The notes under the pieces were generated by a model. The model was not told the origin of the DNA. It searched no databases and saw only the letters and a program-made list of their open reading frames with translations. The position numbers and the translations under genes are program-made. A stretch of 64,000 bases of DNA from Candidatus Cloacimonadales bacterium (GTDB lineage Bacteria; Cloacimonadota; Cloacimonadia; Cloacimonadales; JAIOQZ01): NCBI GenBank assembly GCA_963665815.1, contig OY762463.1, positions 3,200,001-3,264,000 on the forward strand, written 5' to 3'. This document shows, piece by piece, positions 8,890-25,885 of this stretch (positions are counted from its first letter, which is position 1; every line of letters starts with the position of its first letter).

Positions 8890-10046
8890 TGAAAATATTG
8901 ATGTTGCTGGTTATACTGTTAGTTAGTATATCTCTATGGTCGGCAGTTGATTACATGGTAGAAACAGTAGGAGAGGAATCGCTTGTATATTTGAGTATAC
9001 CATACTCATTTTTCAATTTCAGACACAAAAGCGGAAAGTTTATGACAGACTCAAGCGTTGAAATCAGTATATATGATAAAAAGAAAAAACTGAAATTTAC
9101 TGAAACTTTACAGGTACGGTTGCATTTAAATAACAGGCTGGAAATTAATAAGAAGAAGTATCCATATTTATGTATAACAGATCTTAAGAAAGGTCAGTAT
9201 TTGATAAAATTGAAAGTAATATCAGTAAATTATGATAAGGAGATAAGGATTCATATCCGCAACAGTAAAGACAGTCATGATTCAAGTTCTCTTTATGTGT
9301 TCTGTTATTCGGGTGATTCCATATATGAGCCTGTAGATGGCATTCAGGACGCAGATTCTGTTATCGTCAGGCATTACAGCTCTATCAGAGATGCTTCTTT
9401 AAGCATTATCAATACTGATCAAAAAAGTAAATATATGAAAGAAAAAAAGTATTTTCTTTACAAAACCGGAATGAAAACAGAAGAAAAGGATTTAAAGAAC
9501 GGTTTTATATATAGCGTGAAGAAACAAGAAGATAAGACTTTGCATTACAAGGTGAATACTGTTGCTTACAGGTTTAGAAGATCTCATACGGAAACTGAAC
9601 AGATAGAGCAGTTAATGATTATCGAACGAGGTGCATTGATTCGCAGGATGAATAAACTGAAATCAGAGGAACTTGAAGCGGCACTGGACAGTTACTGGAT
9701 TCAGACTGACAGAACTATTGGAGACAATGTAAATGAGTATCAACTAGCCTTTTATAATGCTGTTAAGTTATGTAACGAGAAATTTTCAGTTTTCGGTTAT
9801 AAAATGGGTTGGGATTCAGATATGGGAAGAGTTTTTCTTGAGTATGGCCAGCCGGATGAGATTGTAGAAGAAGCATACCCGAGATATGAGGATTATAAGG
9901 ATTTTTTTACGGATAGTGTTCTGGATTCTTTTTACAGGGCTGTAAAAGACTTCAGCAGCATACAGATATGGTTTTATTATCAAAAAAATAAAGTGTTTTT
10001 ATTTATAGAAAAATATGGAGCGAATAATTATGAATTACAAAATTAA
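8889..10046 (+). CDS. Secreted GWxTD-domain protein (variant GWDSD)
   Basis: Signal peptide; GWDSDMGRVFLEYGQPD...QIWFY. Confidence 0.8.
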   Translation: MKILMLLVILLVSISLWSAVDYMVETVGEESLVYLSIPYSFFNFRHKSGKFMTDSSVEISIYDKKKKLKFTETLQVRLHLNNRLEINKKKYPYLCITDLKKGQYLIKLKVISVNYDKEIRIHIRNSKDSHDSSSLYVFCYSGDSIYEPVDGIQDADSVIVRHYSSIRDASLSIINTDQKSKYMKEKKYFLYKTGMKTEEKDLKNGFIYSVKKQEDKTLHYKVNTVAYRFRRSHTETEQIEQLMIIERGALIRRMNKLKSEELEAALDSYWIQTDRTIGDNVNEYQLAFYNAVKLCNEKFSVFGYKMGWDSDMGRVFLEYGQPDEIVEEAYPRYEDYKDFFTDSVLDSFYRAVKDFSSIQIWFYYQKNKVFLFIEKYGANNYELQN

Positions 10047-11442
10047 AATTGTGCTGCAGATTCTGTCTGCTGTAATTCTGCTTAATGTATGTGGGCTTGT
10101 GCATGCAGAGCAGATGAACGCAATTGTTGAGGAAAATGTGTTTCTCAATGAAAATGGTATTACAAAATACGAATTAGCGTATTCTGTACCTTATAATCAA
10201 ATGATGTTCTTCAAAAATACTGTTGAAGGCGGTGGAAGTATTTATACAGCTAATCTTGTTGTGTCATTGACTCTTGTATTGAATGGTCAGGAGCATCTTA
10301 TAGAATCAACAGAAAAAGTCGTGAATACCAGATTTGAGGAAAACACAAAGAAAAAAGACTATTATTACACTGACAAAGTGTCCCTTGACGTAAAAGCTGA
10401 TGGGTTGAACATAAGACTTACAATAGCTGATTTTGCAATAGGGAATGAATACAATTGGGAAGGCACTACAAAGTTGTTTGCTCTGACTGAAGATAATTTT
10501 TTAAGTGATCTTGAATTTTCTGATAATGTAATGCCTTATAAAATTGGAATGCCGGAAAAACTCGGAAGAGGTGATACTGTATATGTAGTTAATCCTACTC
10601 ACATGTTTACTGAAGATTATAAAGTTCATTTGTATTATGAGTATTATGGTGAGTCTAATGGTGGTGATTTTGAGGAAGAGATTACTGTAACGAGAAACGG
10701 TCAGGAAGAAGTTCTGGCAACATTTGAAAATCACTCGGATAAAATGGTAAACATCAGGCATTTTCCTATGATCATTGAAGCTGGACAGTTTGAAGATGGT
10801 GTTGCAAACTATGATGTTAAAGTAAAAGTTACTAATAAGAAGACCGGAAAAGTATCCGAAAAGATGGAAAAAATTGTAATTGCTAAAATGATTGTAAATT
10901 CTATCAGATTCTTCCAGAATATAGATGATGAGATAAAGCTGATAAACTATTTCGCAGACAGAAAGGATACAGCTAAATGGGAAAATCTCACTAAAGAAGG
11001 TAAGCTGAAGCAGATAGAGTTATTCTGGAGAAAGTTTGATAAAACTTTCATTGATGAGCTTAAGAAAAGAATCAATACTGCTAATCTGAGATTCAGGAAT
11101 TTTCAGGATGGCTGGAAGACTGATCAGGGAAGGATTTACATAAAATTCGGTGAGCCTGATCAACAGGAAAGGGGAGATACAATAAAAGCCCTGAACAGTG
11201 GAAATACTGATTCGGGAGACCTTGACGCTTATTCAGATATACTTATTACAAACAGAACATATGAAAGGTGGGTATACATGCAGGGCGGAGTCAATGCTGT
11301 ATATCTTTTTATTGAAACGAACTCAAATGGTGTATTTAAGCTGATGTATGGTAATAACGAAAAGGATACATCTGAAAATATTGAGAGAAATTGGAGAAAA
11401 TATTTTGGTGATAATTTTGATGAAGCAGAACTGAGATATTAA
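10015..11442 (+). CDS. Secreted GWxTD-domain protein
   Basis: Signal peptide; FW...RINTANLRF...GWKTDQGRIYIKFGEPD...YERWVY. Confidence 0.9.
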   Translation: MERIIMNYKIKIVLQILSAVILLNVCGLVHAEQMNAIVEENVFLNENGITKYELAYSVPYNQMMFFKNTVEGGGSIYTANLVVSLTLVLNGQEHLIESTEKVVNTRFEENTKKKDYYYTDKVSLDVKADGLNIRLTIADFAIGNEYNWEGTTKLFALTEDNFLSDLEFSDNVMPYKIGMPEKLGRGDTVYVVNPTHMFTEDYKVHLYYEYYGESNGGDFEEEITVTRNGQEEVLATFENHSDKMVNIRHFPMIIEAGQFEDGVANYDVKVKVTNKKTGKVSEKMEKIVIAKMIVNSIRFFQNIDDEIKLINYFADRKDTAKWENLTKEGKLKQIELFWRKFDKTFIDELKKRINTANLRFRNFQDGWKTDQGRIYIKFGEPDQQERGDTIKALNSGNTDSGDLDAYSDILITNRTYERWVYMQGGVNAVYLFIETNSNGVFKLMYGNNEKDTSENIERNWRKYFGDNFDEAELRY

Positions 11443-11464: not shown

Positions 11465-11848
11465 TTAATAGAAATCAACTAATTCAGTAACTGGTGAAAA
11501 GGCATTTTCTATATGCTTAATTTCCCAGTTACATTTCCTTTTTGCAATTGCAATAACATCAAATCTCATTAGTTTTTCATTAAGATCTTGATTCTTGTTA
11601 ACGTAGTTCAAGGCTGTTCTGGAAATTTTTTTCTGTTTTTTCACAGAAATACTTGACAACGCATTATTAACAGAGCTATTTCTTGTTTTTACTTCAAAAA
11701 AAATTATAGTATTTTCGTAAGAAGCAATGATATCTACTTCTCCAAATTTAGAGAAATAGTTATGCTCTAATATCTGGTAACCCTTATTAATTAAATAAGT
11801 AAGAGCCAGTTTTTCTCCGGCTTGTCCGATTTTTTTGACCATACTCAA
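11465..11848 (-). CDS. yraN: YraN (UPF0102) family putative endonuclease
   Basis: G..GE..A..YL..KGY.ILE.NY...GEVDIIA...FFEVKTR...RFDVIAI. Confidence 0.92.
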   Translation of the reverse strand: MSMVKKIGQAGEKLALTYLINKGYQILEHNYFSKFGEVDIIASYENTIIFFEVKTRNSSVNNALSSISVKKQKKISRTALNYVNKNQDLNEKLMRFDVIAIAKRKCNWEIKHIENAFSPVTELVDFY

Positions 11849-11935: not shown

Positions 11936-13066
11936 ATGAAAAAAACGCTCTTGATTTTTGTTGTCTTGCTTTTGCTGGCGACGTTAAATGGCGTCCCATT
12001 TACTTCTATGGGGGGATTTAACATTCCTTCAGCAAGAGTATTACCACATAAAATGATGGAAGTATCCGTCATTGGCTCAGGTGGTCAGGGAATTAATGGA
12101 ATCGAAAGAGACAGTACTGCTTCTGGTCAAATAGTTTTTGATGCAGAACAGTATGACTTCACTTATGCAAGCATGATTAATTTTGGTTTGTTTGACAGGG
12201 CTGAAGTCGCATTAATATATGATGCAAACCAGGAAATACTGGGTAACTTCAAAATTCAGCTTTTCAATGAGACAGAAGCCCGACCAGCAATTGCATTCGG
12301 TATCAATAATCTTTTTTCTCCAATCAAGGATTTCAGGGATTGGAATGACGAAGAAATGATTGATGAAGAGTACTGGGTAGTTGATCCTTCCGGGAAATAT
12401 TCATACACTCATCCTGGCGATACCCTTGCAACTCATTATTCAATCAATGATGACTATCAGTATCAGGATATTGATGATTACATTGAGAATTCATGGTATT
12501 TTGTAATCAGTAAATCTGTTGTATGGGCAGATGTACCATTTTTACAAAACTTTGGTATTGATTACCTTGAATCAGTAATGCACCTTGGACTTGGTCAGGG
12601 AAAATTTGTTGGGAACGTTGATTTCTCCAAAAAATTTAACGGACTGTTCGGTGGTATTGAAGCAAAAGTATCAGATCTTGCATCTGTTTTTGCTGAAATT
12701 GATGGTCACAATATCAATGTTGGTGGAAGCCTTTCCATTAAGAAGTGGACTGTTAGTGCAGGTATGTACAGACTTGAGGAGATTTTCAATGATGTTGAAA
12801 GCGATCCGAAATTTGCATTAAGTGTGAAATATGCAATCGATGCATGGTCTGAATTAAAGTACAATGAAAGAAATGCTGTTGAAAGTACTCCAGGTACATC
12901 ATCAGTTCCTTCTGGAAGACGTACAGTAAGACAAGGTAAAAAGGAAGTTCAGGAACAATCCGGAGATAATCCGCTTTTACAGGAACTTGAAGCTATCAGA
13001 GCTAAACGTAAAGAAGCAGAAAAAGAATTGGAAGCAATTAAGAGTTTATTAGAAGAAGAAGAATAG
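11936..13066 (+). CDS. Putative outer-membrane beta-barrel (YjbH/GfcD-like) with C-terminal coiled coil
   Basis: Signal peptide; GGFNIPSARVL N-terminal motif; alternating aromatic beta-strands; GLFGGIE...FAEIDG; charged heptad tail. Confidence 0.6.
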   Translation: MKKTLLIFVVLLLLATLNGVPFTSMGGFNIPSARVLPHKMMEVSVIGSGGQGINGIERDSTASGQIVFDAEQYDFTYASMINFGLFDRAEVALIYDANQEILGNFKIQLFNETEARPAIAFGINNLFSPIKDFRDWNDEEMIDEEYWVVDPSGKYSYTHPGDTLATHYSINDDYQYQDIDDYIENSWYFVISKSVVWADVPFLQNFGIDYLESVMHLGLGQGKFVGNVDFSKKFNGLFGGIEAKVSDLASVFAEIDGHNINVGGSLSIKKWTVSAGMYRLEEIFNDVESDPKFALSVKYAIDAWSELKYNERNAVESTPGTSSVPSGRRTVRQGKKEVQEQSGDNPLLQELEAIRAKRKEAEKELEAIKSLLEEEE

Positions 13067-13067
13067 T

Positions 13068-15095
13068 ATGAAAATTAAATCAGTTTTCTTGTGTCTTTTT
13101 ATATTATTATCTGCAATGAATATGGCAGCTCAACAGGAGCAGTCTTTTGAAGCAGGTATCGTGAATGAGCTCAGCGGGGAGATTGATGAACTCGGTCGAC
13201 TTGCTGAAAAGAAAGAGGTTGTAAAAAAACTTGCTGATAAAGGTGATCAGGCAACAATCTTGAGATTATTTAATTCAGATGCTGCTGTAGTTGATGAGGT
13301 GCTTGCACTTAAACAACTGAAACCAGTGCAGGATGAGTTGAATAGTATGGAAATTGTATATAGTGATGTTGATTTCCTCAAAGGATATCTAAATTACTAT
13401 GAAGCTAGAACTCAAATCCTGGAAGGCAGACTAACTCGAGCTCAATATTCACTTGAAGAATTTGTTGGAAATGCTTCAAATACAGATAAAAGAAAAGATG
13501 CAATTTACTGGCTGGAATATGTGTATTTCATGTCAGGTAATGACAGAGAACTGATTGCGCTGCATAAAAATCATTATAACTGGGCAGAAGATGAAAGTCA
13601 GAAATTCTGGCTCGGTAATGCTTATTACAATATATCCGATATTACAACCGCAGAGACAATATTTACATCATTGAAATCATCTCCTATTTATGGAGAAAAA
13701 GCTGATTTGATGTTGACTCTTATAGGTTACTCGGAATATGGATTGGAATATGCAATAGAAAAATTCCTGGAATATGTAAATGATAAAGGTGAAAGCGGAG
13801 CAAATATAGATTTTGTTTATTTATCACTTGGTCGTCTATATCAGGAACGTAATGATTTTGAAAAAGCAATATATTGCTACGATAAATACAGTGAATTAAC
13901 TAAAGATGAACCTTCAAATGAATTCTGGTATGAGCTTTTCCTTCTTGCTGTTAAAAACAAAAGATTTGATGAAGCTAAAAGATACCTTAAATATATAATT
14001 GATGGTCCAAGTACCGGAGATTATTTTAATTCTGCAAGTTATCTCTACGCCGTGATGTACCAGTTGATGGGTAATCTGGATAATGCTGATCAGGAAATTC
14101 AGACCGCTATAAAAGATGCTGAAAATATTTCAGAAATTTTAATAACCAAAGAGCGTTTAATGGATAAAATTAAAGTTCTGAAAGATAAGCATGCCCAGAC
14201 TGAAGACATGAATGAACGTAAAGAAATTGCAGAAAAACTTGAAAAATTCAATCAGGCTGCCAGAGGCTCTAGTGATATGCTGATAGATATCACTATGGGC
14301 ATTTCTGATGATGATATATTGAAACTTGCAATTCTTGAAGAAGAATATTTCAGTTACAACAGTACTATTAATGAAATGGAAAATATGATTCATGTATTGG
14401 AAACTACATCAAATAAGAAAATTCCGAAAGCCATGGATACATTGATAGATAATCTTGATGAAGATATTGTCAGATTTAAGACTATAAGAAGTCTTGCTAA
14501 TCTTGATAATTTTACTGTTGATGATTATCAGCTTTCATATGCAATTAATAGTGAAATTTACTATATGGAAAAGGTCGTTGATACATACAAGAGCCTTGAG
14601 AAATATGGTAAAAGAAAGAACAAAACAAGGCTTGTTACTTCAGCAAAGAAAAATCAGGAGTTACTCAATGATCTTAAAATATCGCTGGATGCAATACTTG
14701 TAAGTTCATTCGGAGATGTAGATTCTTCTGCATTGATTCAGCAGGTAATTACTGAGGAAATCAAAAGTGCAGAAGTATTGAAGGAAAACTATGCTTTAAC
14801 AAGAAAACTTGTTATTAAGAACTTCAATAAAGTACTCGCCAGAAGAGTTAAAAAAGAGAAGAATCTTCTTGATTCTGAAAATACAAAGATTTATGCGAAT
14901 TACTCAGATCGTATAAAGGCTTTCCAGAAAAGACTGAAAGAAATAGACCAAAGATACAATTTTACAAAATTAGATATTCTTTATGCAAGAGCTAAAGAAT
15001 ACGATGATGAGTTTAAGTTAATGCAGGAAGATTACAGAAATGCATCATCGGTTAATGAAAACATAGAAAATCCTGAATCAAAATCAGGCGAATAA
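13068..15095 (+). CDS. Secreted TPR / coiled-coil protein (GltC-like position)
   Basis: Signal peptide; TPR signatures (FWLGNAYY, YLSLGRLYQERNDFEKAIYCYDKY); helical coiled-coil C-half. Confidence 0.7.
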   Translation: MKIKSVFLCLFILLSAMNMAAQQEQSFEAGIVNELSGEIDELGRLAEKKEVVKKLADKGDQATILRLFNSDAAVVDEVLALKQLKPVQDELNSMEIVYSDVDFLKGYLNYYEARTQILEGRLTRAQYSLEEFVGNASNTDKRKDAIYWLEYVYFMSGNDRELIALHKNHYNWAEDESQKFWLGNAYYNISDITTAETIFTSLKSSPIYGEKADLMLTLIGYSEYGLEYAIEKFLEYVNDKGESGANIDFVYLSLGRLYQERNDFEKAIYCYDKYSELTKDEPSNEFWYELFLLAVKNKRFDEAKRYLKYIIDGPSTGDYFNSASYLYAVMYQLMGNLDNADQEIQTAIKDAENISEILITKERLMDKIKVLKDKHAQTEDMNERKEIAEKLEKFNQAARGSSDMLIDITMGISDDDILKLAILEEEYFSYNSTINEMENMIHVLETTSNKKIPKAMDTLIDNLDEDIVRFKTIRSLANLDNFTVDDYQLSYAINSEIYYMEKVVDTYKSLEKYGKRKNKTRLVTSAKKNQELLNDLKISLDAILVSSFGDVDSSALIQQVITEEIKSAEVLKENYALTRKLVIKNFNKVLARRVKKEKNLLDSENTKIYANYSDRIKAFQKRLKEIDQRYNFTKLDILYARAKEYDDEFKLMQEDYRNASSVNENIENPESKSGE

Positions 15096-15115
15096 TTAAA
15101 CTAAAAGGCACATCA

Positions 15116-18100
15116 ATGGGAAAGAAAGTTAGTTATCTAATATTGTTCCTTTTCATCAGTAGTATTATACTGTCTTCAGTGACATCATATGAAGAATTAG
15201 CAAAGAGAAAAGAAAAAAATGATGCTTATAAGCGAGAGCTGTTCAGAAAAACCGAAAGTTTTATTAAAGACAACCCAGACTCTCCTGATCTCGCGTTTCT
15301 TTATTTTCAACTTGCAGAAATCAGTGCTCAGGTTGATGGGATAGATAACCCGTTAAAACCTGCAAAGCTTTACAGCAAAGTTCTTGAGATTGATCCTGAT
15401 TTTACTGATAAAGATGTTGTTTTATATCAAAAAGCTTTCTATCTGTTTCAAGCTGAATCACAAAGAGTTGATGAAGGTAGAACAAGAAATCTTTATACCG
15501 AGGGAATTGATGTTGAAAGCTGGCCTGATTCATTAAGATTAATAAAAGATAACGCAAGAATCAGTGAGGCAGTTGATGCTTATAATGAAGTATTCAAAAT
15601 GCCTAATTCTGATTTAAGAGATGATGCGATTTATCGACTTGGGAACATATATTACAACCTTGCACTGGATGCAAGATCTCCCTTGAAATATTATAAAACA
15701 GCTATATCGTATTTTGATTATCTTGCTCAAAAATCTGAAGACGAAAAGTACAAAGATTACGGATTGGCTTACAGAGCATGGGCTAAATTTGCCAGTGGTT
15801 TTTACGAAGAATCCATTGCTGATTTCACTCTAATCCTTGATAAGATTAGAAAAGAAGGAAACGAAAGGCTGAAGACTTACTTTGAAGTAGATGCTGTAGA
15901 AAATCTGGCATATTCATTTGTGGAATTTGATGGTGGAAATTATGAACAATATTCTATTGCTGCGGCAAAAGCCATTGAATTGTTCAATCAGATTGTAGAT
16001 GAAAAATATGGTAAGCAAATTTTGAACAAAGCTATTGAATACAAAAGGGATTTGAATTCACCTATGCAGGCAATGGATTTATATAATGCATACATTTCAA
16101 TTTATCCAATGTCGCCTGAGAATCCATCTATTATTGATTCTATCAGATTACTGTTGACCAGGAATCCTTCAAATTCGAGAGCTACCAGTGATAATGAGCT
16201 GGAAGAATTTATTATTAAAGAAAAAGTACGTCTGGTTGAGAATTACAATACAGATTCAGACTGGTATAAAACAAATGTAGATTCTGCAGGGGCAGATGTT
16301 ACTGCAGAACTGAAAATAATAAGAGAAGCTTACGAGTTTTTATTTAACAGGTATTACAATAATTTTTCTCAGGATCCTGAGTATGTAAAACTTGAAAAAT
16401 ATAAGGATCTCACAGATTCTTATGAAAAATTTCATCAGTTTAAAGATGAGAAATATGATAAGCATATTTATGATAATTATGTGAATTATGTTGAAGCTCT
16501 TTATATAATGGCGGGAATGAATAAGACTCCTGAAGAATTCCTTAAGGCTCGTGAAGCATTTATAAATCTTAATGAGAGATACCCTGAGAATGAGAATTAT
16601 TATGACAATGAATTCAGAATTTTCCTTTGTATTGATGAAATAAGAAATCAGGTAAAAGATTTGGATGAAACGGATGTTTCTGCTAACGAAGGTACTGATT
16701 CCACTGTAACCACAGGTATTTCAAGAAAAGATGCAGATTCAATGTATGTTGATGCTACTCTCAAATTCGAAAAGATCTTGAGAAACCCAAAATATGCAGA
16801 AATGGATAAAGAAAATCTGCTTCCTAAGTTAGTATATAACAGAGCAGAGATAAGATTCAAAAATGCTATTTTTGACTCTGCCTATGTTGACTATGAAAAA
16901 CTACTTGAACTTGAAATAAAAGATAATGTTAAGAAACGAGCTTATCTTCAACTCGCTGTTCTGAATGAAAAGAGAAACGATTTTGTTCTCTCCAGAGAGT
17001 ATTTTGAAAAAGCATTAGCACTTGCCGATAATGAAGATCAGGAAATGATCAGAACAAATATTGATGCATCAATTCAGAGTAATGCAAAGAAACTGAAAAC
17101 CGGTGGTGATCTGGTTCAATCTGCTGAAGGCTATCTTGAACTTGCTGACAGATATAAGGATAAGGACAAGAAAAAGAGCCGTGGATTTGTTGTTGAAGCA
17201 ATTAACACATACAAGCAAGTACCCGACTATCAAAAGGCTATTGATTTGTGGCTGAGTTTGACAGATGACCTTATTACTCCGAAACCTGTTGAAGAGAACA
17301 AAGTTGAAGTTCTTACATATTATAAAAATGCCTGGGATATTGCTGATTCTCTTATGACTGACCTTGAACAAGGTAAGGATTTGAGATATAGATTCATCGG
17401 ATTATATCCAAACAGTAATGAAGCTTATCAACTTCATATTGAGATTATTAAAATGTACGAAGAAGGCGCCTTTAAAAATATAGAAACTGCTGCAGAAATG
17501 TATATGGATTTATATGAGAAGTCTCGATCAATGGACTTAGGTACTGAGAAGAGAGAAGATTTGTATCTTCAATCTTTCAAGCTGTATAAAGAACTTGGTA
17601 ATGAGGATAAAGTCGTTGAGTTGAGCCTTGATTTTGAGAAGAAATATCCTGATCACCCTGCAGCAATGTCAATGCTTATCGAAGTTGCTAAAAAGTACAA
17701 AAATCAGAATAAAGAAGAGGAATTCAAGAGTCTGGCAAAATATATTCATAAGAAAGACCCGAATAACAATCTGCTAAGCAATATTGCAGCTTCTGAATTG
17801 AGAGAAATATACATGGAAGCTGACAGTTTATTCAAAACGAAAGATTTCGGTGCAATGAATGAAAAGATTTTCGAATACAAGAGGCTGGAAAGCAAGTATG
17901 AGAAAGAAAATCTTGATATTAAAGTTGATATTGTTCATGAAGATTTTGCTTACTGGAAAGATTACGTAAAATATTATGATAATTTTGACAAAACCTTTGA
18001 AAAAGTGAACAGTACATTCCTTGATCGAACTCCACAACAGTTATTGAAAGTGAATAACCTTACAAGATTCGGTAGGAACTTTAAAGGTCGTATAAAGAAA

Positions 18101-19462
18101 CTTAAGGAAAGTGCAGATAAAGCTTCTGAGGAATTGGCAAAGCTATTCGTAGACGGACGTAGTTATGAGATGAAACTTGAACAGGAAACTAAAATATTAT
18201 ACACAATTGGATATTGTTATGAGTATGCTTCTGAAGTTCTTGTAGGGCAGACACAAAAGTTTGCTGATGTTTCAATGGATGCAAATGAAGCAAAAAATAC
18301 CGGTGTCGGTCACTATAATGAGTTTAAGAAACTGCTTTTCGGTTATGTTAATCCATATAGACAGGAACTTTTGACTACTGCTGCCGGTCGTTATATGGAA
18401 TTATACGAGAATTACTATATGAACAAAGATTATAGAGATGACAACTATCAACACCCATATGACAAACTTGTTGAGTGGGGTGTAATGACTGATAAAGTTT
18501 ATGTTGATACTGATATAACTTCATGGAAGTCCAATGCAATTGATATGGGAGCTGATTTCGCAGTTTCTGCATTGAATTCTGATTGGTCAAATTCAGTTGT
18601 GACTGATACTGTTGATTCCAGAGGAACAAAATATCCACTTTGGACGCTTGAACCGGGATTTGTAAACTATTACAAGAATACACTGAACATTGAAATGATT
18701 CCTGAAATTGTTACATTTACCTATGTTGCAGCAAACAAGGCAGAAATATCAATTAACAATAATATTTTGAATGCTGAGCATGTTAAAAGTGATTCCATGA
18801 AAATTGATGGTGAAAACTATTATGTTTATCATGTTAAGACGCTAGATAACATTGCAACAGGTAATAATGCCTTTGTATTCAAGGCAGATCCAGCAAACAC
18901 GAATAAGTTTTCTGCAAAAGTGACAGCACAATATGATGCTGATAAACTTGAGTACTTCAGAACTACAGAAAAAAGATCTCTTGTCTCAGATTACACTTGG
19001 ATGACTAAAGAAGCTGACGAGATTGACCCGAATATTACTGAGATAGACTCAACTTGGTCTTTTGCAGGTCAGGATTTGTCAGTATTCTATAAAGTTAGTA
19101 TTGATGGCATGCAGGAAGGCGAATCTGATGCTATTGGTATCTGGGCTCCGAATCCTGATTCAACCAGAGTGTACTCAGTATATTTCTGGAAGAAAATCAA
19201 TATAGAAAGCGAATTTCTTGATGGGGAAATTAAGGTAGTTGGACATGAGTTTACTTCAATCTGGATAAATGGTCAGGAAATGTTATATGAATTCCCAATT
19301 GATCTTGATCCAATTATTAATAAAGTATACCCAAGCCCTGTGCTGCTTGATAGTTCTAACTTCGTTCAAGGTGAGAATATCATTCTTGTAAAAGTTACTA
19401 GTAATAGAAACTGGAAGACGCTTTACTTTGATATGCAGTATACAGTTAAAAAACCGGAGTAA
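15116..19462 (+). CDS. Giant secreted TPR protein (GltD/AgmU-like) with C-terminal beta-sandwich domains
   Basis: Signal peptide; many TPR repeats (YFQLAE, DDAIYRLGNIYY, EKKYPDHP); beta-rich C-terminal about 300 aa. Confidence 0.75.
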   Translation: MGKKVSYLILFLFISSIILSSVTSYEELAKRKEKNDAYKRELFRKTESFIKDNPDSPDLAFLYFQLAEISAQVDGIDNPLKPAKLYSKVLEIDPDFTDKDVVLYQKAFYLFQAESQRVDEGRTRNLYTEGIDVESWPDSLRLIKDNARISEAVDAYNEVFKMPNSDLRDDAIYRLGNIYYNLALDARSPLKYYKTAISYFDYLAQKSEDEKYKDYGLAYRAWAKFASGFYEESIADFTLILDKIRKEGNERLKTYFEVDAVENLAYSFVEFDGGNYEQYSIAAAKAIELFNQIVDEKYGKQILNKAIEYKRDLNSPMQAMDLYNAYISIYPMSPENPSIIDSIRLLLTRNPSNSRATSDNELEEFIIKEKVRLVENYNTDSDWYKTNVDSAGADVTAELKIIREAYEFLFNRYYNNFSQDPEYVKLEKYKDLTDSYEKFHQFKDEKYDKHIYDNYVNYVEALYIMAGMNKTPEEFLKAREAFINLNERYPENENYYDNEFRIFLCIDEIRNQVKDLDETDVSANEGTDSTVTTGISRKDADSMYVDATLKFEKILRNPKYAEMDKENLLPKLVYNRAEIRFKNAIFDSAYVDYEKLLELEIKDNVKKRAYLQLAVLNEKRNDFVLSREYFEKALALADNEDQEMIRTNIDASIQSNAKKLKTGGDLVQSAEGYLELADRYKDKDKKKSRGFVVEAINTYKQVPDYQKAIDLWLSLTDDLITPKPVEENKVEVLTYYKNAWDIADSLMTDLEQGKDLRYRFIGLYPNSNEAYQLHIEIIKMYEEGAFKNIETAAEMYMDLYEKSRSMDLGTEKREDLYLQSFKLYKELGNEDKVVELSLDFEKKYPDHPAAMSMLIEVAKKYKNQNKEEEFKSLAKYIHKKDPNNNLLSNIAASELREIYMEADSLFKTKDFGAMNEKIFEYKRLESKYEKENLDIKVDIVHEDFAYWKDYVKYYDNFDKTFEKVNSTFLDRTPQQLLKVNNLTRFGRNFKGRIKKLKESADKASEELAKLFVDGRSYEMKLEQETKILYTIGYCYEYASEVLVGQTQKFADVSMDANEAKNTGVGHYNEFKKLLFGYVNPYRQELLTTAAGRYMELYENYYMNKDYRDDNYQHPYDKLVEWGVMTDKVYVDTDITSWKSNAIDMGADFAVSALNSDWSNSVVTDTVDSRGTKYPLWTLEPGFVNYYKNTLNIEMIPEIVTFTYVAANKAEISINNNILNAEHVKSDSMKIDGENYYVYHVKTLDNIATGNNAFVFKADPANTNKFSAKVTAQYDADKLEYFRTTEKRSLVSDYTWMTKEADEIDPNITEIDSTWSFAGQDLSVFYKVSIDGMQEGESDAIGIWAPNPDSTRVYSVYFWKKINIESEFLDGEIKVVGHEFTSIWINGQEMLYEFPIDLDPIINKVYPSPVLLDSSNFVQGENIILVKVTSNRNWKTLYFDMQYTVKKPE

Positions 19463-19467
19463 GATAA

Positions 19468-19719
19468 ATGAAAAGAATCACAATATTTATATTAATGATG
19501 TTTATGCTTGGCTTATATGCTCAGGAAAACAAGAAGAGCATCAAGGATAAATACAAAAACGTAGCAACTTTAAAGAGTAAGGAAGTCAAAGAAGTAAAAG
19601 TTGAAGATCTTAAACCGGATAATTCCGCATTACTAGGCAAAAAAGATTCTCCGAAAAAAGCTGGACTTAAAAGACATGCTATAGAGAATTTTAAGAAATC
19701 TAATAAATTATTATATTAA
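19468..19719 (+). CDS. Small secreted basic protein (GltF/CglF-like position)
   Basis: Signal peptide (LYAQE); 83 aa; lies between the giant TPR gene and the motor genes. Confidence 0.65.
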   Translation: MKRITIFILMMFMLGLYAQENKKSIKDKYKNVATLKSKEVKEVKVEDLKPDNSALLGKKDSPKKAGLKRHAIENFKKSNKLLY

Positions 19720-19737
19720 TAAAAACAGGAGGTCGAA

Positions 19738-20490
19738 ATGACACCTAAAGTCAAAAAGACTTTTTTCACCATTTTATTCATGGTTACCGGAGTATTAATG
19801 TTCGCTCAAAACGTTAAGGTTGATACAGATGAGTTTAGTCCAATTGCGTTGTTTATGGGCGCTATTGAGTGGATGGCTCCAATTGCTTTTCTCGGAGTAG
19901 TATCACTGGTTCTGTTTTTTGTGAAGTTTGGTATTCTTTATTTTAAAGAAAAACTTGATGCCGGAAAATTCTACCTTAAACTTAAAGGATTCATTAAAAA
20001 TGGTCAATACGATGAAGCGGTAAAAACATGTCAGCCACACAAAGACAAGATTCTTGGCTTCGTATTCTGGAATGGACTTCTTGCATTTAACGATGCTAAA
20101 AAAGCCGGAAAACAAGGTGTTGAACTTGAAGAATCACTCGCAAACGCTCTTAATGAAGCCGGTATGCAGAAAGCTCCACAAGTAACTGCAGGATTACACT
20201 GGTTTGACATTGTTGGACAGGTTGCTACACTTCTTGGACTTCTTGGTACAATCGCCGGTCTTATTGACGCGTTCTCAGCTCTTGCATCACTTGGTGAATC
20301 CGAACAGGGTGCAGCACTTACAGGTGGTATTGCTAAAGCGATGGGTACAACTGGTTTCGGACTTCTTGTTGCAATTCCAACTATGTTCTTCAAAGGTATC
20401 CTTGAAGGTCGAGCTACAACTATCGTCAGCAAAATTGATGAGTATAGTGTAAAAATAGTTAATGAGATTAGTAACTCAATTAAGAAATAA
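19738..20490 (+). CDS. MotA/TolQ/ExbB proton-channel subunit (AglR-like)
   Basis: ATLLGLLGTIAGLIDAF and GIAKAMGTTGFGLLVAIP transmembrane motifs. Confidence 0.92.
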   Translation: MTPKVKKTFFTILFMVTGVLMFAQNVKVDTDEFSPIALFMGAIEWMAPIAFLGVVSLVLFFVKFGILYFKEKLDAGKFYLKLKGFIKNGQYDEAVKTCQPHKDKILGFVFWNGLLAFNDAKKAGKQGVELEESLANALNEAGMQKAPQVTAGLHWFDIVGQVATLLGLLGTIAGLIDAFSALASLGESEQGAALTGGIAKAMGTTGFGLLVAIPTMFFKGILEGRATTIVSKIDEYSVKIVNEISNSIKK

Positions 20491-20500
20491 GGAGCAATAG

Positions 20501-21028
20501 ATGTATCAGGGACCATCAAGTTCAAGGAAGATTGTTCGGGCTACAAGTAAAGACCTGAACCTGATTCCTATTATGAACTTGTTTATTACTATTATCCCAA
20601 TGCTGCTTGTTATAACGGTTACTGTAAAAATGGCTATGGTTGAGATACAAATGTCTGCAAATAATGCTCCACAAGGAAATGAAGAGCAAAAAGAAGAAGA
20701 TGATGAAGATAAAATTCAAACACTGAAACTGGCAATATTTGAAGACAGATTTGAGATAATTTACAATGACGATAACTCAAAGGTAAAGAAAATACCTGTT
20801 ATTGATCCTTCTGCGACCATTGTAACTCAACGTTATAATATGTTTGAACTGGATAAAGAGCTTGCAGAGTTTAAAAAGGATAATAAAGATCAGAATGAGA
20901 TCACTATTCTTGCTGCGGGAAATGTTAACTTTGATGCACTTATGGCATCTGTTGATGTCTGCAAAGTTAATGAGTTTCCTTCTATAAACTATGAATCTGC
21001 GGTTGAACTATTCATTCAAAAACAGTAA
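20501..21028 (+). CDS. ExbD/TolR-family subunit (AglQ-like; conserved Asp replaced by Asn)
   Basis: DLNLIPIMNLFITIIPMLL TM segment; ITILAAGNVNFDALMASVD periplasmic domain. Confidence 0.85.
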   Translation: MYQGPSSSRKIVRATSKDLNLIPIMNLFITIIPMLLVITVTVKMAMVEIQMSANNAPQGNEEQKEEDDEDKIQTLKLAIFEDRFEIIYNDDNSKVKKIPVIDPSATIVTQRYNMFELDKELAEFKKDNKDQNEITILAAGNVNFDALMASVDVCKVNEFPSINYESAVELFIQKQ

Positions 21029-21046
21029 GCAGCAAAGGAGAATGAA

Positions 21047-21568
21047 ATGAAAGCGGATAAATTTAAATCATCAAAAAGGCAGAGAATAAAAAGAAAAGAT
21101 TTGAATATCACATCTTTGATTGATATTCTTACTATCCTACTTGTTTTCCTGCTTAAAAATGTATCTATGGATGCAGCAAAAAACAAACCGCCCAAAAGTA
21201 TGCTTCTTCCTCCTACTGCAACAAATGAACAACTTATAGAAGATGGTCGAACAGTTGTTATTAAAGTATATCCTGATCAGATTCTGTATGGTATGGATGC
21301 TGTTTATGTTGGTTCTCTTGATGATCTTATGAATAATCCTTCTACAAGAAAAGCATTGGAAGGTCATTTACTTCTTGATAAAGAAAGTATTATTGACAAT
21401 GACAATAACGCTGTACCATGTATTCTACTACAGGTTGATAAAAGCGTTCAATGCTCTTACGTAACTGAATTATTTAAGGTCAGCGGGAAAGCTGGATACG
21501 TAAACATATATTTCTCAACACTCTATGAGTCAAATTTGGCTGATAAGTATAGAGGAAGTTCTTCGTAG
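21047..21568 (+). CDS. ExbD/TolR-family subunit (AglS-like)
   Basis: DLNITSLIDILTILLVFLLKN; ILLQVDKSVQCSYVTELFKVSGKAGY. Confidence 0.9.
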   Translation: MKADKFKSSKRQRIKRKDLNITSLIDILTILLVFLLKNVSMDAAKNKPPKSMLLPPTATNEQLIEDGRTVVIKVYPDQILYGMDAVYVGSLDDLMNNPSTRKALEGHLLLDKESIIDNDNNAVPCILLQVDKSVQCSYVTELFKVSGKAGYVNIYFSTLYESNLADKYRGSSS

Positions 21569-21576
21569 GTGAAATT

Positions 21577-23016
21577 ATGAGTGATAAAATATTATGGCTT
21601 GAGTTGGTTTATAAAGGAAAGATTCACAGTTATGTGAATTCAGGCAGGGACTTTAAGAATAATTTCTTAATTGGTTCCAGTGAGTACCTGTTTTGGCAAA
21701 TACTTGACAGGTCTTTTCCAAGTAAATTCAAACTTATAGAAAAGAAAGGTTCATCCTTTGTAATGAATCTTAGAAAAGGTATGGAACTCACCGTTATGAA
21801 AGGTGATGTGACATTGTCTCCTCAGGATCTCAAAGGTAAAAAGATGCTTCAGGGAAATTCTCTGATACTCAATGACACGGCTACAACGGGGATAATTAAA
21901 TTTTCCGGTGACTGGGAAATCCATTACTTTTTCAAGAAACCTTATACTGTTGTTTATACTCATACTGAAAAGCTGCTTATACGTCAGTACTCTAAACATG
22001 AAGGTCTCAGTGCAGAAAACAAAGTAACATTTGCATTCATGACCATTGCGTTCCTGATGTTAGGTGTTGTCACATTTGTAATGCATAAAAATTACGAACC
22101 ACCACAAGTAGCTAACACTTTCAGGGAGAAACTGGCACAAAAGCAAGCACACCTCATGAAGATGCAGCCTGAGATAAAAGAACAGAAAGTTGAGGAACCG
22201 GAAGAAGTTGCCAGCACAAGTGGATTTAAGAAAAAAGCTGAAACAGAAGAAGAAGCTGCAAAACAGGTTGAAGAAGGCGAAAAAAGTCTAGAAAAAGGTA
22301 TGCAGAATATTTTCGGTTCGGCAATGGACGATATAAAGGAAGATGCAGGTAATCTGGAAGATAATTCTGTAGATATGTCTCAGATGTTCAAGGTTACAAC
22401 ATCATCAGGTATTGTTACAACCGCTAAAGGTGCTAACTTGAGAAAAACCAAAAGCAGAGTTGATATTGCAAAGCAATTTGATGAGAAAGGTGGAGATTCC
22501 GGTTTAGACGGATCTACTGGACTTGATGAAATTCTTGCAGGACAATCTGTTTCCGGTGGAGATGGCTATAAAGTACTTAGCAGTGATGAAGTTGGCGAAG
22601 GTGCTGAAGAAATTGGATACGTTTCAATTAAAAGTACTGCCGAACTTGCAAGCATAAAAGGACGTTTTGCCGGTCTTAAAACTCTTGGAGTTGAAGGCGT
22701 AGGAATACAGGAAATGTCTGCTGAAGAAAAAACTGCGTCAGCTCGTATCGAAAAAGTTGTTGATGCATACAAGAGAAGACTTAACAGACTGTACAGAAAC
22801 GAAAGCAGAATTGCTGAAATGTACGGTACAATCAGGTTTGTGCTCTATATTAATAAAGATTCAGATATGGTGGAGATGGTTGAAATCTTCCCGGAATCTG
22901 GAAGCTTCTTTACACCTGAGTTCCTACAGAAAGCTGAAAAGCAGATTCTGACATGGAGAATAAGGGTTGAGCAGAATCGTAGATATGAAACAAGAATGAA
23001 ATTCTTGAAACAATAA
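21577..23016 (+). CDS. GltG/PglI-like TonB-type transducer (cytoplasmic beta domain, one TM, flexible linker, AgmX/PglI-like C-domain)
   Basis: N-terminal beta-rich domain (FLIGSSE...FPSKFKLIEKKGSSFVMNLRKGM); single TM near aa 150-170; E/K/G-rich linker; IEKVVDAYKRRLNRLY...MYGTIRFVLYI...QILTWRI. Confidence 0.75.
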   Translation: MSDKILWLELVYKGKIHSYVNSGRDFKNNFLIGSSEYLFWQILDRSFPSKFKLIEKKGSSFVMNLRKGMELTVMKGDVTLSPQDLKGKKMLQGNSLILNDTATTGIIKFSGDWEIHYFFKKPYTVVYTHTEKLLIRQYSKHEGLSAENKVTFAFMTIAFLMLGVVTFVMHKNYEPPQVANTFREKLAQKQAHLMKMQPEIKEQKVEEPEEVASTSGFKKKAETEEEAAKQVEEGEKSLEKGMQNIFGSAMDDIKEDAGNLEDNSVDMSQMFKVTTSSGIVTTAKGANLRKTKSRVDIAKQFDEKGGDSGLDGSTGLDEILAGQSVSGGDGYKVLSSDEVGEGAEEIGYVSIKSTAELASIKGRFAGLKTLGVEGVGIQEMSAEEKTASARIEKVVDAYKRRLNRLYRNESRIAEMYGTIRFVLYINKDSDMVEMVEIFPESGSFFTPEFLQKAEKQILTWRIRVEQNRRYETRMKFLKQ

Positions 23017-23026
23017 AACATTTATC

Positions 23027-23048
23027 AGCCCCGTAAGGGGCTTTTTTT
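23027..23048 (+). terminator. Rho-independent terminator ending the motor operon
   Basis: AGCCCC-GTAA-GGGGCT followed by a T tract. Confidence 0.85.
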
Positions 23049-25439
23049 ATGAAATACTATTATAATGCAGCCCTTCCGGTCAATGTCGCTAAACTATACA
23101 CATACACTGCAAGTGAAGAAATAGAACCAGGATGCAGGATTATTGTGACGTTTAACAATAGACTCTCCTCAGCTATTGTGTGGTCAAGAATTGATAAACC
23201 AGAAGAAAAAAAAAAGACAATCAAGTATTTACCGATCATAGAGATAATTGATAATGAACCTGTCGTATCTGAAGAAGGTATCAAGATAGCAGAATGGATG
23301 AGCAAGTATTATCATGCTCCTCCGGGTATGGCATTATTCTCAATGATACCTGCCGGGATGCAGATAACATATAACAGAAAAATTACCCTTAAGTCTACTG
23401 ACAATTCGATGTTTGAATCTGAAGATGACAAACTGATATATCATGAATTAAGAGAACATCCGGGAATGAATATAAAAGAGTTGAAAGCAAAAACATCTCT
23501 TAAAAAAATTATCTCTGCTGTAGAAATACTTGAAGAGAAAAATCTCGTTGAAATTGAGAATGTCAGGGATAAGAAAGTAAAGGACAAGTTCAGAAATTAC
23601 ATAAAAATGATTGATAATACTCCCGGAAATTTGCCATTACGTCAAAAAGAACTTTTCGATGCTCTTGTATCATCAACTAACAGAGATACTGCAGTTTCAA
23701 AAATTGCCCAGGATTTCAGCTATTCCGTAATCAAAGCACTGCGAAACAAAGGGATAATAGAAGTCTACAGCAAGAAGGTGCAAATAGAACAGAATCTTTG
23801 GAGTGATATAAGATCATATTCCTCTGTAAAGCTGACAAAGCCGCAGCAAAGTATTTTCGAACAGATCAGAGATAGTATAAAATCAGAAAAATTTGTCCCA
23901 TATCTGTTGTATGGAGTAACCGGTAGCGGTAAGACGGACATTTATGCCCATTGCGTACAGGAAGTACTCAAAAGTGATAAATCAGCGATTGTTCTGCTTC
24001 CCGAAATATCACTTACTCCTCAATTCATTGGTCGGTTCTATGCATATTTTGGTGATAATATTGCAATAATACACAGTGCTCTTACGTTAAGAGAGCGTGT
24101 TGTAGAATGGAAAAAGGTTCGGAATGGAAAAGCTCGAATTGTAATTGGAGCTCGAAGTGCGCTATTTGCTCCTGTTAAGGATTTGGGAATTATCATCGTA
24201 GATGAAGAACATGAAAACACGTACAAACAGGAGAATACTCCGCGGTACAATGCAAGAGACCTTGCAGTGCTTCTTGCAAAGATGAAAGAATCTGTTTGTG
24301 TTCTCGGAAGTGCAACTCCATCTCTGGAAAGTTGGAAGAATGCAGTTGATAACAAGTATAAATTGTTATCTCTGACAGAAAAGCCATTTAACTCAGGGGT
24401 TCCGGAGTTAATAGTATCAGATTTGAAAGATTCTGATGATGAGCTTCTGACACAGGTTTTACGAGACGAAATTGATAATACTTTAAGGTCAGGTAAGCAA
24501 GTATTACTGTTTCAGAACAGGCGTGGATATGCGAATTTTGTTCAATGCACCCAATGCGGGTTTATTGTGAAATGTTCTGATTGTGACGTAAGCATGAAGT
24601 ACCACAGGCACGATGAGTCTATTCAATGCCATTATTGTGGAAAACATGAGAAAGCTCCCACATTGTGTCCGGAGTGTGAGTCCCGTATTCTAAAATATGG
24701 TTCAGCCGGTATACAACAGGTTGAATCTCGGGTTCAGGCATATTTTCCTGAAGCCAGAATTTTAAGGATTGATTCCGACACTGTGACAACTAGAAAGGCA
24801 TATGAGAGTTTTATACAGAGAATGGAAGATTCTTCTGTAGATATACTTATAGGTACTCAGATGGTTGCTAAAGGACTCCATTTCCCAAATCTGTCATTAC
24901 TTGGTGTTATAAATGTTGACAATCTGACAAATATACCTGATTTTCGTGCTGAGGAGAAAGCATTTCAGCTATTGACTCAAGTTGCAGGACGAGTTGGCAG
25001 AGGAGAAGATAGAGGAAAGATCGTTTTGCAGACTTATAATCCGGACAGTTTTATAATAAAAATGGTGAGGAACAATGATTTTATCACGTTTATTGAGCAT
25101 GAATTGTCTAATAGAAGTGCTTTGCATTATCCTCCGTACAGTAAACTGGTAAGAATAATTTTCACTTGTGAAATAAATGATCTGTTGTTGCAGGAGATGA
25201 AGAAAGTAGATAAGTTTGTTAAGGAGTTCAGAAAGATTTATAGCGATAGTCAGTTGATTTTCCTGGGACCGGTGCAAGCTCCAATAACGAAATTGCATAA
25301 CAGATACAGGTTTCATTTATTGGTTAAGTCAAAATCAGTCAGTCAGATATCAATATTTATCAATGTTTTGAAAGAAAATTTGAAATTACATGCAGGAATA
25401 AAGGTTAATATAGATGTAGATCCTGCAAATCTTATATGA
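23049..25439 (+). CDS. priA: Primosomal protein N'
   Basis: GVTGSGKT, LLPEISLTPQ, IVDEEHE, GSATPSLES, four CxxC, GTQMVAKG, QVAGRVGR. Confidence 0.97.
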   Translation: MKYYYNAALPVNVAKLYTYTASEEIEPGCRIIVTFNNRLSSAIVWSRIDKPEEKKKTIKYLPIIEIIDNEPVVSEEGIKIAEWMSKYYHAPPGMALFSMIPAGMQITYNRKITLKSTDNSMFESEDDKLIYHELREHPGMNIKELKAKTSLKKIISAVEILEEKNLVEIENVRDKKVKDKFRNYIKMIDNTPGNLPLRQKELFDALVSSTNRDTAVSKIAQDFSYSVIKALRNKGIIEVYSKKVQIEQNLWSDIRSYSSVKLTKPQQSIFEQIRDSIKSEKFVPYLLYGVTGSGKTDIYAHCVQEVLKSDKSAIVLLPEISLTPQFIGRFYAYFGDNIAIIHSALTLRERVVEWKKVRNGKARIVIGARSALFAPVKDLGIIIVDEEHENTYKQENTPRYNARDLAVLLAKMKESVCVLGSATPSLESWKNAVDNKYKLLSLTEKPFNSGVPELIVSDLKDSDDELLTQVLRDEIDNTLRSGKQVLLFQNRRGYANFVQCTQCGFIVKCSDCDVSMKYHRHDESIQCHYCGKHEKAPTLCPECESRILKYGSAGIQQVESRVQAYFPEARILRIDSDTVTTRKAYESFIQRMEDSSVDILIGTQMVAKGLHFPNLSLLGVINVDNLTNIPDFRAEEKAFQLLTQVAGRVGRGEDRGKIVLQTYNPDSFIIKMVRNNDFITFIEHELSNRSALHYPPYSKLVRIIFTCEINDLLLQEMKKVDKFVKEFRKIYSDSQLIFLGPVQAPITKLHNRYRFHLLVKSKSVSQISIFINVLKENLKLHAGIKVNIDVDPANLI

Positions 25440-25624: not shown

Positions 25625-25885
25625 ATGAAAAAGACAACTGCGTTACTTGTAATTCTGGTTTTTGTTGTATCATTTGTACTTTCCGCTTGTACACCAAAGC
25701 CACCTCCTGTGTCTGAAGCTGATTTAAATCAGGCGATACAGGCAACAGAAACTGCTGAGAGTGAAGCGGATAAGCTTTTAGAAGAAAAAACAATGAAAGA
25801 ACAGGAATTAAGGAAGAAACAGGAAGAACTTAAGAGTCTTAAAGATTATAAAGATGAGTTAATCAGAACCGGAGGTGGAAAATGA
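25625..25885 (+). CDS. Small coiled-coil lipoprotein
   Basis: LSAC lipobox, then a heptad-rich helix; GGAG RBS. Confidence 0.8.
   Translation: MKKTTALLVILVFVVSFVLSACTPKPPPVSEADLNQAIQATETAESEADKLLEEKTMKEQELRKKQEELKSLKDYKDELIRTGGGK

Follow-up and report, generated by a model that had tools for sequence, protein, structure and literature searches.

We analyzed a 64,000-nucleotide stretch of DNA (positions 3,200,001–3,264,000, hereafter the window) from the single-contig genome, 3.96 Mb in size, of a Candidatus Cloacimonadales bacterium. Between positions 11936 and 23016 of the window, eight tightly packed + strand open reading frames (ORFs), here named A to H, form an operon with homology to, and colinearity with, Glt-like gene clusters from Myxococcota. 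We read this operon as the form that the Agl-Glt/Nfs "core complex" takes in Cloacimonadota, a machine that would carry energy from the inner membrane to a target in the outer membrane or on the cell surface, and place the probability of this reading at a little over 70%. The operon belongs to an already described kind of system and not to a new one; a preliminary description of this DNA, made from the sequence alone, had recognized the likeness to Agl-Glt and Nfs, but went too far in presenting the operon as an undescribed system.

The core complex was defined in 2011 as aglR, aglQ, aglS, gltC, gltD, gltE and gltG together with one extra gene (group B; Luciano et al. 2011, PMC3169522). That paper reports it with unknown function from Gamma- and Deltaproteobacteria and from Fibrobacter, with a patchy distribution marked by gene transfer, which agrees with the mention of reduced cores of unknown function in the preliminary description. 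The operon was also said there to be uncharacterized in this lineage. Indeed, the literature we searched joins Cloacimon* with none of Agl-Glt, GltG, AglR or Nfs, and the main text of an MBE 2025 survey of TolA/TonB-type force transducers (PMC12204202) names neither GltG nor Cloacimon*.

Homology and gene order shared with Myxococcota clusters

A word-index search returned three relatives of the 479-residue protein H and five of the 1448-residue protein C. With a three-sequence profile of H, HMMER found 109 matches at E≤1e-3, 57 of which reached E≤1e-30, among 1.84 billion representatives, nearly all of them 440–530 amino acids (aa) long. Three GltG-like relatives were aligned, and 14 loci were retrieved from metagenome-assembled genomes (MAGs) assigned to Myxococcota or "Deltaproteobacteria". 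In three of these loci (L060, L061 and L062), the cluster begins with a GltC-like gene (808 aa; NF033756, 54.7 bits), followed by a large tetratricopeptide repeat (TPR) protein of 1178 aa that matches the YbgF/CpoB and BamD TPR models and no Glt model, a GltE-like protein (482 aa; NF033758, 113.4 bits), a small protein of 99 aa with a weak match to CglF (NF033764, 26.6 bits), a TolQ-like channel (218 aa) whose 67.7 bits on the TolQ model nearly equal the score of protein E, a pair of ExbD-like proteins (205 and 161 aa) without any NCBIfam match, and finally a GltG-like protein (471 aa; NF033760, 159.8 bits). Across the Myxococcota partners, NCBIfam scores were 54.7–82.8 bits for GltC (L060, L071), 98.8–113.4 for GltE and 87.5–165.8 for GltG. 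Since these lie below the equivalog cut-offs, we regard the clusters as relatives of Glt and not as the Myxococcus xanthus genes themselves. The label "GltD-like" is given by position and size only, because no GltD model matched any of the proteins scanned.

Families built from the window and ten Cloacimonadota genomes were compared by hhalign with those of the Myxococcota loci in all 64 (8 × 8) combinations. Channel E matched the AglR-like channel (99.8%, E-value 2.3e-28) and H the GltG-like protein (99.4%, 427 columns). Protein C matched the protein at the GltD position (99.6%, E-value 7.3e-25, 755 columns, residues 54–870), a relationship also seen by BLASTP (E-value 6.5e-6), while its scores against the GltC-like and GltE-like families were 6.7% and 6.5%. 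The similarity to GltG and GltD anticipated for the 479-residue and TPR proteins was thus found, here with respect to their Myxococcota counterparts. The two ExbD-like proteins were told apart as well: F matched paralogue 1 at 98.9% and paralogue 2 at 0.4%, whereas G matched paralogue 2 at 98.7% and paralogue 1 at 31.8%. The order common to both phyla is GltC-like, GltD-like, small protein, channel, first ExbD, second ExbD, GltG-like.

The operon and the clustered Myxococcota loci (L060–L063 and L072) have in common an AglR-like channel, two ExbD paralogues with an Asn/Asp pair, a giant TPR protein in the place of GltD and, upstream of it, a further TPR protein in the place of GltC, a small secreted protein ahead of the motor genes, and a short GltG-like protein at the end, all in one operon and in the same order. 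Differences are also evident: the Cloacimonadota operon has no GltE-like gene and brings its own barrel, A; C carries an extra region of about 450 aa, and many genomes encode B and C as one fused protein; the membrane helix of H lacks a conserved histidine; and, as read from the sequences, B, C and D are all without a lipoprotein cysteine. In Myxococcota loci L060–L064, L069 and L071, the GltG-like gene is followed by a conserved pair encoding a secreted protein of ~190 aa and a protein of ~450 aa whose sequence resembles an outer-membrane barrel. Neither is related to A, and the pair may correspond to the "additional gene" of the core mentioned by Luciano et al.

Predicted motor, transducer, scaffold and barrel

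Pfam recognized MotA_ExbB in E, ExbD in both F and G, and TPRs in B and C, as the preliminary description had it, and returned nothing for A, D and H. Protein E (250 aa; 19738–20490, +) is a TolQ/ExbB/AglR-type channel subunit scoring 82.4 bits on PF01618, and is presumed to form a pentameric stator ring. On NCBIfam, its best model is TolQ (TIGR02796, 66.1 bits against a cut-off of 221), with ExbB second (TIGR02797, 38.7 bits against 206). In a set of 31 genomes, consisting of the window and 30 further Cloacimonadota genomes of different genera, T171, T204 and T205 are conserved in all 31 and P214 in 29; we take these to be the ion-path residues of TolQ and ExbB. We placed E in a tree of 38 channel sequences comprising all MotA_ExbB-family genes of five Myxococcota genomes, Cloacimonadota sequences and a MotA outgroup. 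Four of the Myxococcota channels are TolQ (218–235 bits on NCBIfam). The 11 Cloacimonadota channels form one clade (support 100/99), which groups with five AglR-like channels at 89/74 and, together with two further unnamed channels, at 98/94, while TolQ and its relatives fall in a separate clade (99/98). Judged by its sequence, E appears to belong with the AglR-like channels, outside the canonical TolQ clade, as would be expected of the Agl-Glt/Nfs-like motor first proposed.

The proteins F (175 aa; 20501–21028, +) and G (173 aa; 21047–21568, +) are paralogues of ExbD/TolR type (PF02472, 33.4 and 40.2 bits). At the site of the membrane-embedded Asp, paralogue 1 (F) has Asn in 31/31 Cloacimonadota and in 5/5 clustered Myxococcota loci, and paralogue 2 (G) has Asp in the same 31/31 and 5/5. 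Both canonical ExbDs of the source genome have Asp, and so do both ExbD-like proteins of a Polyangiales genome (G233) in which the motor genes and the glt-like genes are at separate loci. AglQ and AglS are likewise both said to keep the Asp in a review (PMC9389320), so that M. xanthus differs from the operon in paralogue 1. On these sequences, the Asn/Asp pair is a derived character common to the Cloacimonadota operon and the clustered Myxococcota loci, and it places the operon closest to the clustered "core" type.

The putative force transducer is protein H (479 aa; 21577–23016, +). In an AlphaFold2 (AF2) model built from 68 sequences (predicted local distance difference test score, pLDDT, 77.2), a beta domain (residues 1–120) is followed by a single membrane helix (146–172), a charged, disordered periplasmic linker of ~180 aa with its predicted disorder at 258–351, and an alpha/beta domain (382–476). 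The combined AF2, Foldseek and PDB profile results identify the first domain as an FHA fold and the last as a TonB-CTD-like domain, which bears out the single-pass protein with a cytoplasmic beta domain and a TonB-like C-domain foreseen in the preliminary description. All top Foldseek matches were FHA domains (best E-value 2.9e-4, target-normalised TM 0.6–0.68), with the Helicobacter pylori TonB C-domain (6sly) at rank 33. A PDB search with the family profile put TonB chains on top (E-values 4.3e-4 to 2e-3), and one with the single H sequence gave nothing meaningful. As far as the model goes, H follows the plan described for GltG, in which a membrane helix with an FHA domain beside it is followed by an extended linker and then a TonB-like C-domain (PMC11761067, PMC3169522). 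The link to GltG also runs through distant members of the H family: two of these, P0111 and P0125, score 202.7 and 158.4 bits on the NCBIfam model gliding_GltG (NF033760) over most of their length, and both also pass the AgmX/PglI tail model. In addition, the 68-sequence profile matches a 647-aa Enhygromyxa protein annotated by NCBI as "AgmX/PglI C-terminal domain-containing" (E-value 4e-8; hhalign 96.8%). AgmX and PglI are former names of GltJ and GltG, as given in the text of PMC3169522.

The TonB-like end of H, the ExbD domains and the outer-membrane barrel in the operon could also be taken to mean a specialized ExbBD-TonB uptake system that opens A for a nutrient. We regard this as scarcely probable. 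Neither TonB_dep_Rec nor Plug was found among the 50 window ORFs scanned with Pfam, and the ExbB score of E is far below its cut-off. Elsewhere, at 1.909 Mb and next to a CarboxypepD_reg protein, the genome carries a regular exbB-exbD-exbD-tonB locus, whose ExbDs both have Asp. The likeness lies in the channel and ExbD family domains and in the end of the transducer, and we know of no Ton system with giant TPR scaffolds or an FHA domain.

Proteins B and C would provide the scaffold. Protein C (1448 aa; 15116–19462, +) is a predicted periplasmic TPR scaffold at the GltD position. Its extra C-terminal region of ~450 aa (18110–19459) is non-TPR, conserved in the phylum and not covered by the Myxococcota counterpart; an Atlas search with the C-terminal 449 residues gave no score ≥0.9. 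Protein B (675 aa; 13068–15095, +) is a secreted TPR protein whose repeats are N-terminal and whose C-terminal half is a long, charged helical stretch. It reaches 39.3 bits on TIGR02795 (ybgF), under that model's cut-off, and hhalign gives 97.5% to the GltC-like, 97.0% to the GltD-like and 80.3% to the GltE-like family. As these scores are non-specific among TPR proteins, position alone separates the three readings of B, and its place 5' of the GltD-like gene agrees with GltC. Protein D (83 aa; 19468–19719, +) is a small, probably secreted protein at the position of Myxococcus gltF, with conserved strand and tail motifs in a 27-sequence alignment; the secreted peptide proposed in the preliminary description is supported by its signal-peptide-like N-terminus and by a homologue at the same position in 31/31 genomes.

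Protein A (376 aa; 11936–13066, +), a predicted secreted outer-membrane beta-barrel, begins the operon. The AF2 model (30 sequences, pLDDT 68.4) has ~13 strands within residues 41–301 and a helix at 346–375, and the overall layout is a barrel of about 12 strands (residues ~20–307), a disordered linker and the conserved C-terminal helix. VIA-align against 48,161 chains returned membrane beta-barrels in its first 27 rows; with one exception these are bacterial outer-membrane proteins, and the 12-stranded ones match best. Foldseek concurs, with the FapF secretion channel and oligosaccharide porins among the nearest folds. A profile search of the PDB gave only coiled-coil noise. The structural comparisons support the earlier assignment of the first gene to an outer-membrane barrel, and the sequence comparisons suggest that A is specific to the Cloacimonadota lineage.

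The barrel and the C-terminal region of C bear on whether the machine might transport or assemble a surface polymer, with A as exit or anchor and the beta-rich end of C binding a glycan. Agl-Nfs, which uses the same motor family, is reported to transport the polysaccharide coat of Myxococcus spores (PMC3858216). As to the operon, 16/30 members of the A family show a weak match to the exopolysaccharide protein YjbH of Pfam over its N-terminus (best E-value 9.1e-8), the near folds of A include those just named, and the last ~100 aa of C show weak matches to beta-sandwich parts of carbohydrate-active enzymes, namely a carbohydrate esterase (E-value 1.2e-3) and rhamnosidases (E-value 0.026). The three leads from the operon are weak, being either below curated cut-offs or matches to a common fold only, and a barrel fold does not establish function. 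Moreover, Pfam scans of the window placed no glycosyltransferase or export gene in the operon or adjoining it. We therefore consider polymer transport or assembly doubtful as the specific role of the machine.

Conservation in the phylum and other motor genes

The eight ORFs are separated by gaps of 1, 20, 5, 18, 10, 18 and 8 nucleotides from A to H, and the operon is closed by an intrinsic terminator (23027–23042, +) consisting of a 6-pair stem with 5 G-C pairs followed by a T-run. This site is the strongest of its kind in the region and lies 11 nucleotides past the last stop codon, ahead of priA (23049–25439); the scan returned 11 terminator-like sites against 4.4 ± 1.8 in shuffled sequences, and those inside the operon are weak. 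The arrangement is as first described: eight packed, co-directional genes and one terminator. The GC content of the operon (0.33–0.36) equals that of its flanks. Just upstream lie genes for two GWxTD-domain proteins in tandem and for one protein of the YraN family (8889–11442, +, and 11465–11848, −), and 3' of priA (25625–26769, +) an 86-aa ORF precedes a 295-aa coiled-coil protein with a C-terminal LysM peptidoglycan-binding domain. The one remaining large ORF of the window is PgpH-like by comparison with the PDB.

The assignment to Cloacimonadota, given as probable in the preliminary description, is supported by homologues named "Candidatus Cloacimonetes bacterium" and by the nearest Atlas cluster, which is Cloacimonadota. 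Within the phylum, a GltG-like gene (E≤1e-5) is present in 174/232 genomes, in 119/151 high-quality genomes and in 44/66 genera. It is near universal in most families; three families largely lack it (0/9, 0/6 and 1/21). Genes C through H are colinear in all 31 genomes compared for synteny, and the core genes are clustered here outside Myxococcales too. Gene A is present in 30 of the 31, and B is a separate ORF in 12. In the other 19 genomes, we found four full-length B-C fusions, one partial B, and 14 cases in which C has a divergent N-terminal extension of ~515 aa that matches the B profile at 94.3% and other TPR families at 4.7% at most. The fusions argue that B and C act as one unit. In ten related loci, GWxTD lies upstream in seven and priA downstream in seven. 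The distribution fits vertical inheritance of a housekeeping operon, unlike the patchy one that Luciano et al. describe for the core complex (PMC3169522), and a housekeeping role is suggested by the wide presence in the phylum, the kept neighbors (GWxTD/yraN upstream, priA downstream) and the flank-like GC content.

A housekeeping operon of this kind could be the lineage's stand-in for Tol-Pal, in which the motor and a TolA-like H would pull on B, C and A, anchoring the outer membrane to the wall and constricting it at division. The likenesses are several: a TolQ/TolR-like motor of 5:2 type, a transducer that crosses the membrane once and has a TonB/TolA-like C-domain, TPR proteins (B and the GltD-like proteins) that match the CpoB/YbgF model, TolQ as the top named model for E, and a near-universal, single-copy operon set among replication genes. 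None of 158 Cloacimonadota genomes of ≥90% completeness has a TolQ above the cut-off (best 110 bits), but a Bacteroides thetaiotaomicron control is under it as well, so this cut-off says little outside Proteobacteria. Of just four ExbD-like genes in the source genome, two are F and G and the others belong to the exb locus. Its best match to the TolB model reaches 122.7 bits against a cut-off of 343 and consists of two tandem PD40 beta-propeller proteins of ~395 aa at 3.89 Mb (G000:C1:3889891-3892244; L124:3892-6245). We rejected these as TolB; they end in a FlgD_ig/type IX secretion system (T9SS)-type tail and are, for that reason, probably secreted surface proteins. The Pal model reaches 71.5 bits against 125, and Pal-like OmpA proteins occur elsewhere in the genome in unrelated contexts. 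In the window, a Pfam scan of 50 ORFs (14 at E≤0.01, 36 at E≤1e-8) found no TonB-dependent receptor (TonB_dep_Rec, Plug), TolB or OmpA/Pal, as stated in the preliminary description; ORFs that matched no family stay unassigned. Compared with Tol-Pal, the operon has no linked Pal or TolB partner, a channel under the TolQ cut-off and outside the TolQ clade, two distinct TolR-like proteins, an FHA domain on the transducer, and giant TPR proteins. Myxococcota, furthermore, have both canonical TolQ and clusters of this type, and in three families of the phylum the GltG-like gene is mostly missing. Taking both sides together, we hold a replacement of Tol-Pal to be unlikely.

A further point against a Tol-Pal role comes from other Cloacimonadota, in which genes for a MotA_ExbB (222 aa), an ExbD (138 aa) and a TonB_C protein (237 aa) form a compact trio beside folP-cdaA-coaE (G118:C1:124169-125965 and G156:C9:37405-39231; loci L127 and L128). 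No such trio was found in the source genome or its genus. It could be the lineage's minimal Tol-like motor, or a second Ton motor.

The source genome holds four MotA_ExbB-family genes, belonging to the flagellar motA-motB, the exb locus, a MotA-like/OmpA-like pair and E, respectively. The third of these, a non-flagellar MotA-like gene with an OmpA-domain (MotB-like) partner, directly follows a 461-aa FliG_C protein (68.8 bits) at G000:C1:1270306-1273032 (L007:7290-10016), flanked by a cadherin/Big_5 protein, a FadL/TPR-like protein and a 1576-aa T9SS-tailed protein. Possibly, this set forms a rotor-stator module that is not part of the flagellum.

Strength of the assignment, proposed mechanism and implications

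Several observations weigh against assigning the operon to the core complex. The comparison was made with Myxococcota MAG clusters that lie under the equivalog cut-offs, not with the M. xanthus proteins themselves, and no window protein reached the NCBIfam models for GltC, GltE, GltG or GltJ, even at E≤10; H, taken alone, matched no NCBIfam model, neither NF033760 nor NF033768. The node joining the AglR-like and Cloacimonadota channels has moderate support, and its Myxococcota sequences come from five genomes. No GltE-like gene was found, as the 5-nucleotide gap between C and D holds no ORF, no window protein matches NF033758, and profiles placed no extra ORF in the 31 genomes, the rest of the genome not having been searched. 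The GltC-like match of B is of the non-specific sort described above. Protein D shows no evident homology to the Myxococcota small proteins (hhalign 4.6%), a relation to GltF included, and for A hhalign found no Myxococcota counterpart, nor did a hidden Markov model from 30 sequences match anything in the 14 loci. Finally, H departs from its relatives at two sites. The membrane helix of the family has no conserved histidine (H169 varies), whereas H182 is invariant in three Myxococcota-type relatives, and the canonical Gly-Arg of FHA domains is replaced by Gly-Ser/Lys/Thr in 68/68 sequences, with Arg at position 34 in 0/68. This Arg is, we assume, the phosphothreonine-binding residue of FHA domains, and its replacement makes phosphothreonine binding by H doubtful.

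A further reading would have the operon drive gliding, like the Agl-Glt machinery of Myxococcus or Bdellovibrio. The operon is homologous to the core of a gliding machine, and the genome encodes T9SS-type cargo proteins. On the other hand, the core alone is insufficient for motility and is found in non-gliders, as Luciano et al. 2011 argue (PMC3169522). Beyond the missing GltE at the locus, the CglB model (NF033757) gave 16.5 bits in a stop-filled frame and thus no real match, window proteins matched neither GltJ (NF033761) nor CglF (NF033764), and none of them reached the GltG equivalog; gltA, gltB, gltH, gltI and gltK were not searched for. The genome also contains a flagellar system (motAB and fliMN). 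In our view gliding is very unlikely, and motility is the least likely of the three activities offered in the preliminary description. Compared with the M. xanthus Agl-Glt and Agl-Nfs machines, the operon has the same motor family and transducer logic (cf. PMC11761067); it differs by having one FHA domain in H against two in GltG, motor genes inside the cluster rather than elsewhere, no CglB match, and proteins below the Glt equivalog models. Rather than gliding, the most likely output is a housekeeping task in the envelope, either upkeep of the outer membrane or the handling of a surface polysaccharide.

The contacts and stoichiometry of the machine can be sketched from TolQR and ExbBD as analogues, together with the AlphaFold model of Agl-Glt. 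In the model described in PMC11761067, GltG binds AglR through its membrane helix and docks on GltD through its TonB-like domain, and a two-hybrid result for AglR and GltG is given in PMC3169522. By this analogy, five copies of E would surround a heterodimeric F/G axle and be powered by proton flow; as F carries Asn and G Asp, there would be a single proton-carrying site. The motor would grip the membrane helix of H, whose FHA-fold domain would sit beneath it in the cytoplasm, while the flexible linker would span the periplasm and let the TonB-like end dock on the giant scaffold of B and C. This scaffold may extend to barrel A, and D may serve as an adaptor.

What the Agl-Glt core does in bacteria that do not glide has been a question since 2011. 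Because the core is near universal, vertically inherited, single-copy and free of gliding add-ons in Cloacimonadota, the phylum offers a clean comparative set for addressing it, within the practical limit that most of the lineage is uncultured. The Asn/Asp pair of ExbD-like proteins offers a naturally occurring test of whether two proton-binding sites are required in 5:2-type motors, and the B-C fusions lend independent support to a GltC-GltD contact that has until now been based on AlphaFold. A more speculative and rather improbable extension is that in Cloacimonadota the operon shows the Agl-Glt family in its ancestral, housekeeping state, a 5:1:1 motor with a single proton site that stabilizes the envelope in a Tol-Pal-like manner through its TPR scaffold and barrel. 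If this were true, gliding and spore-coat assembly in Myxococcus would be later specializations of a machine for envelope maintenance.

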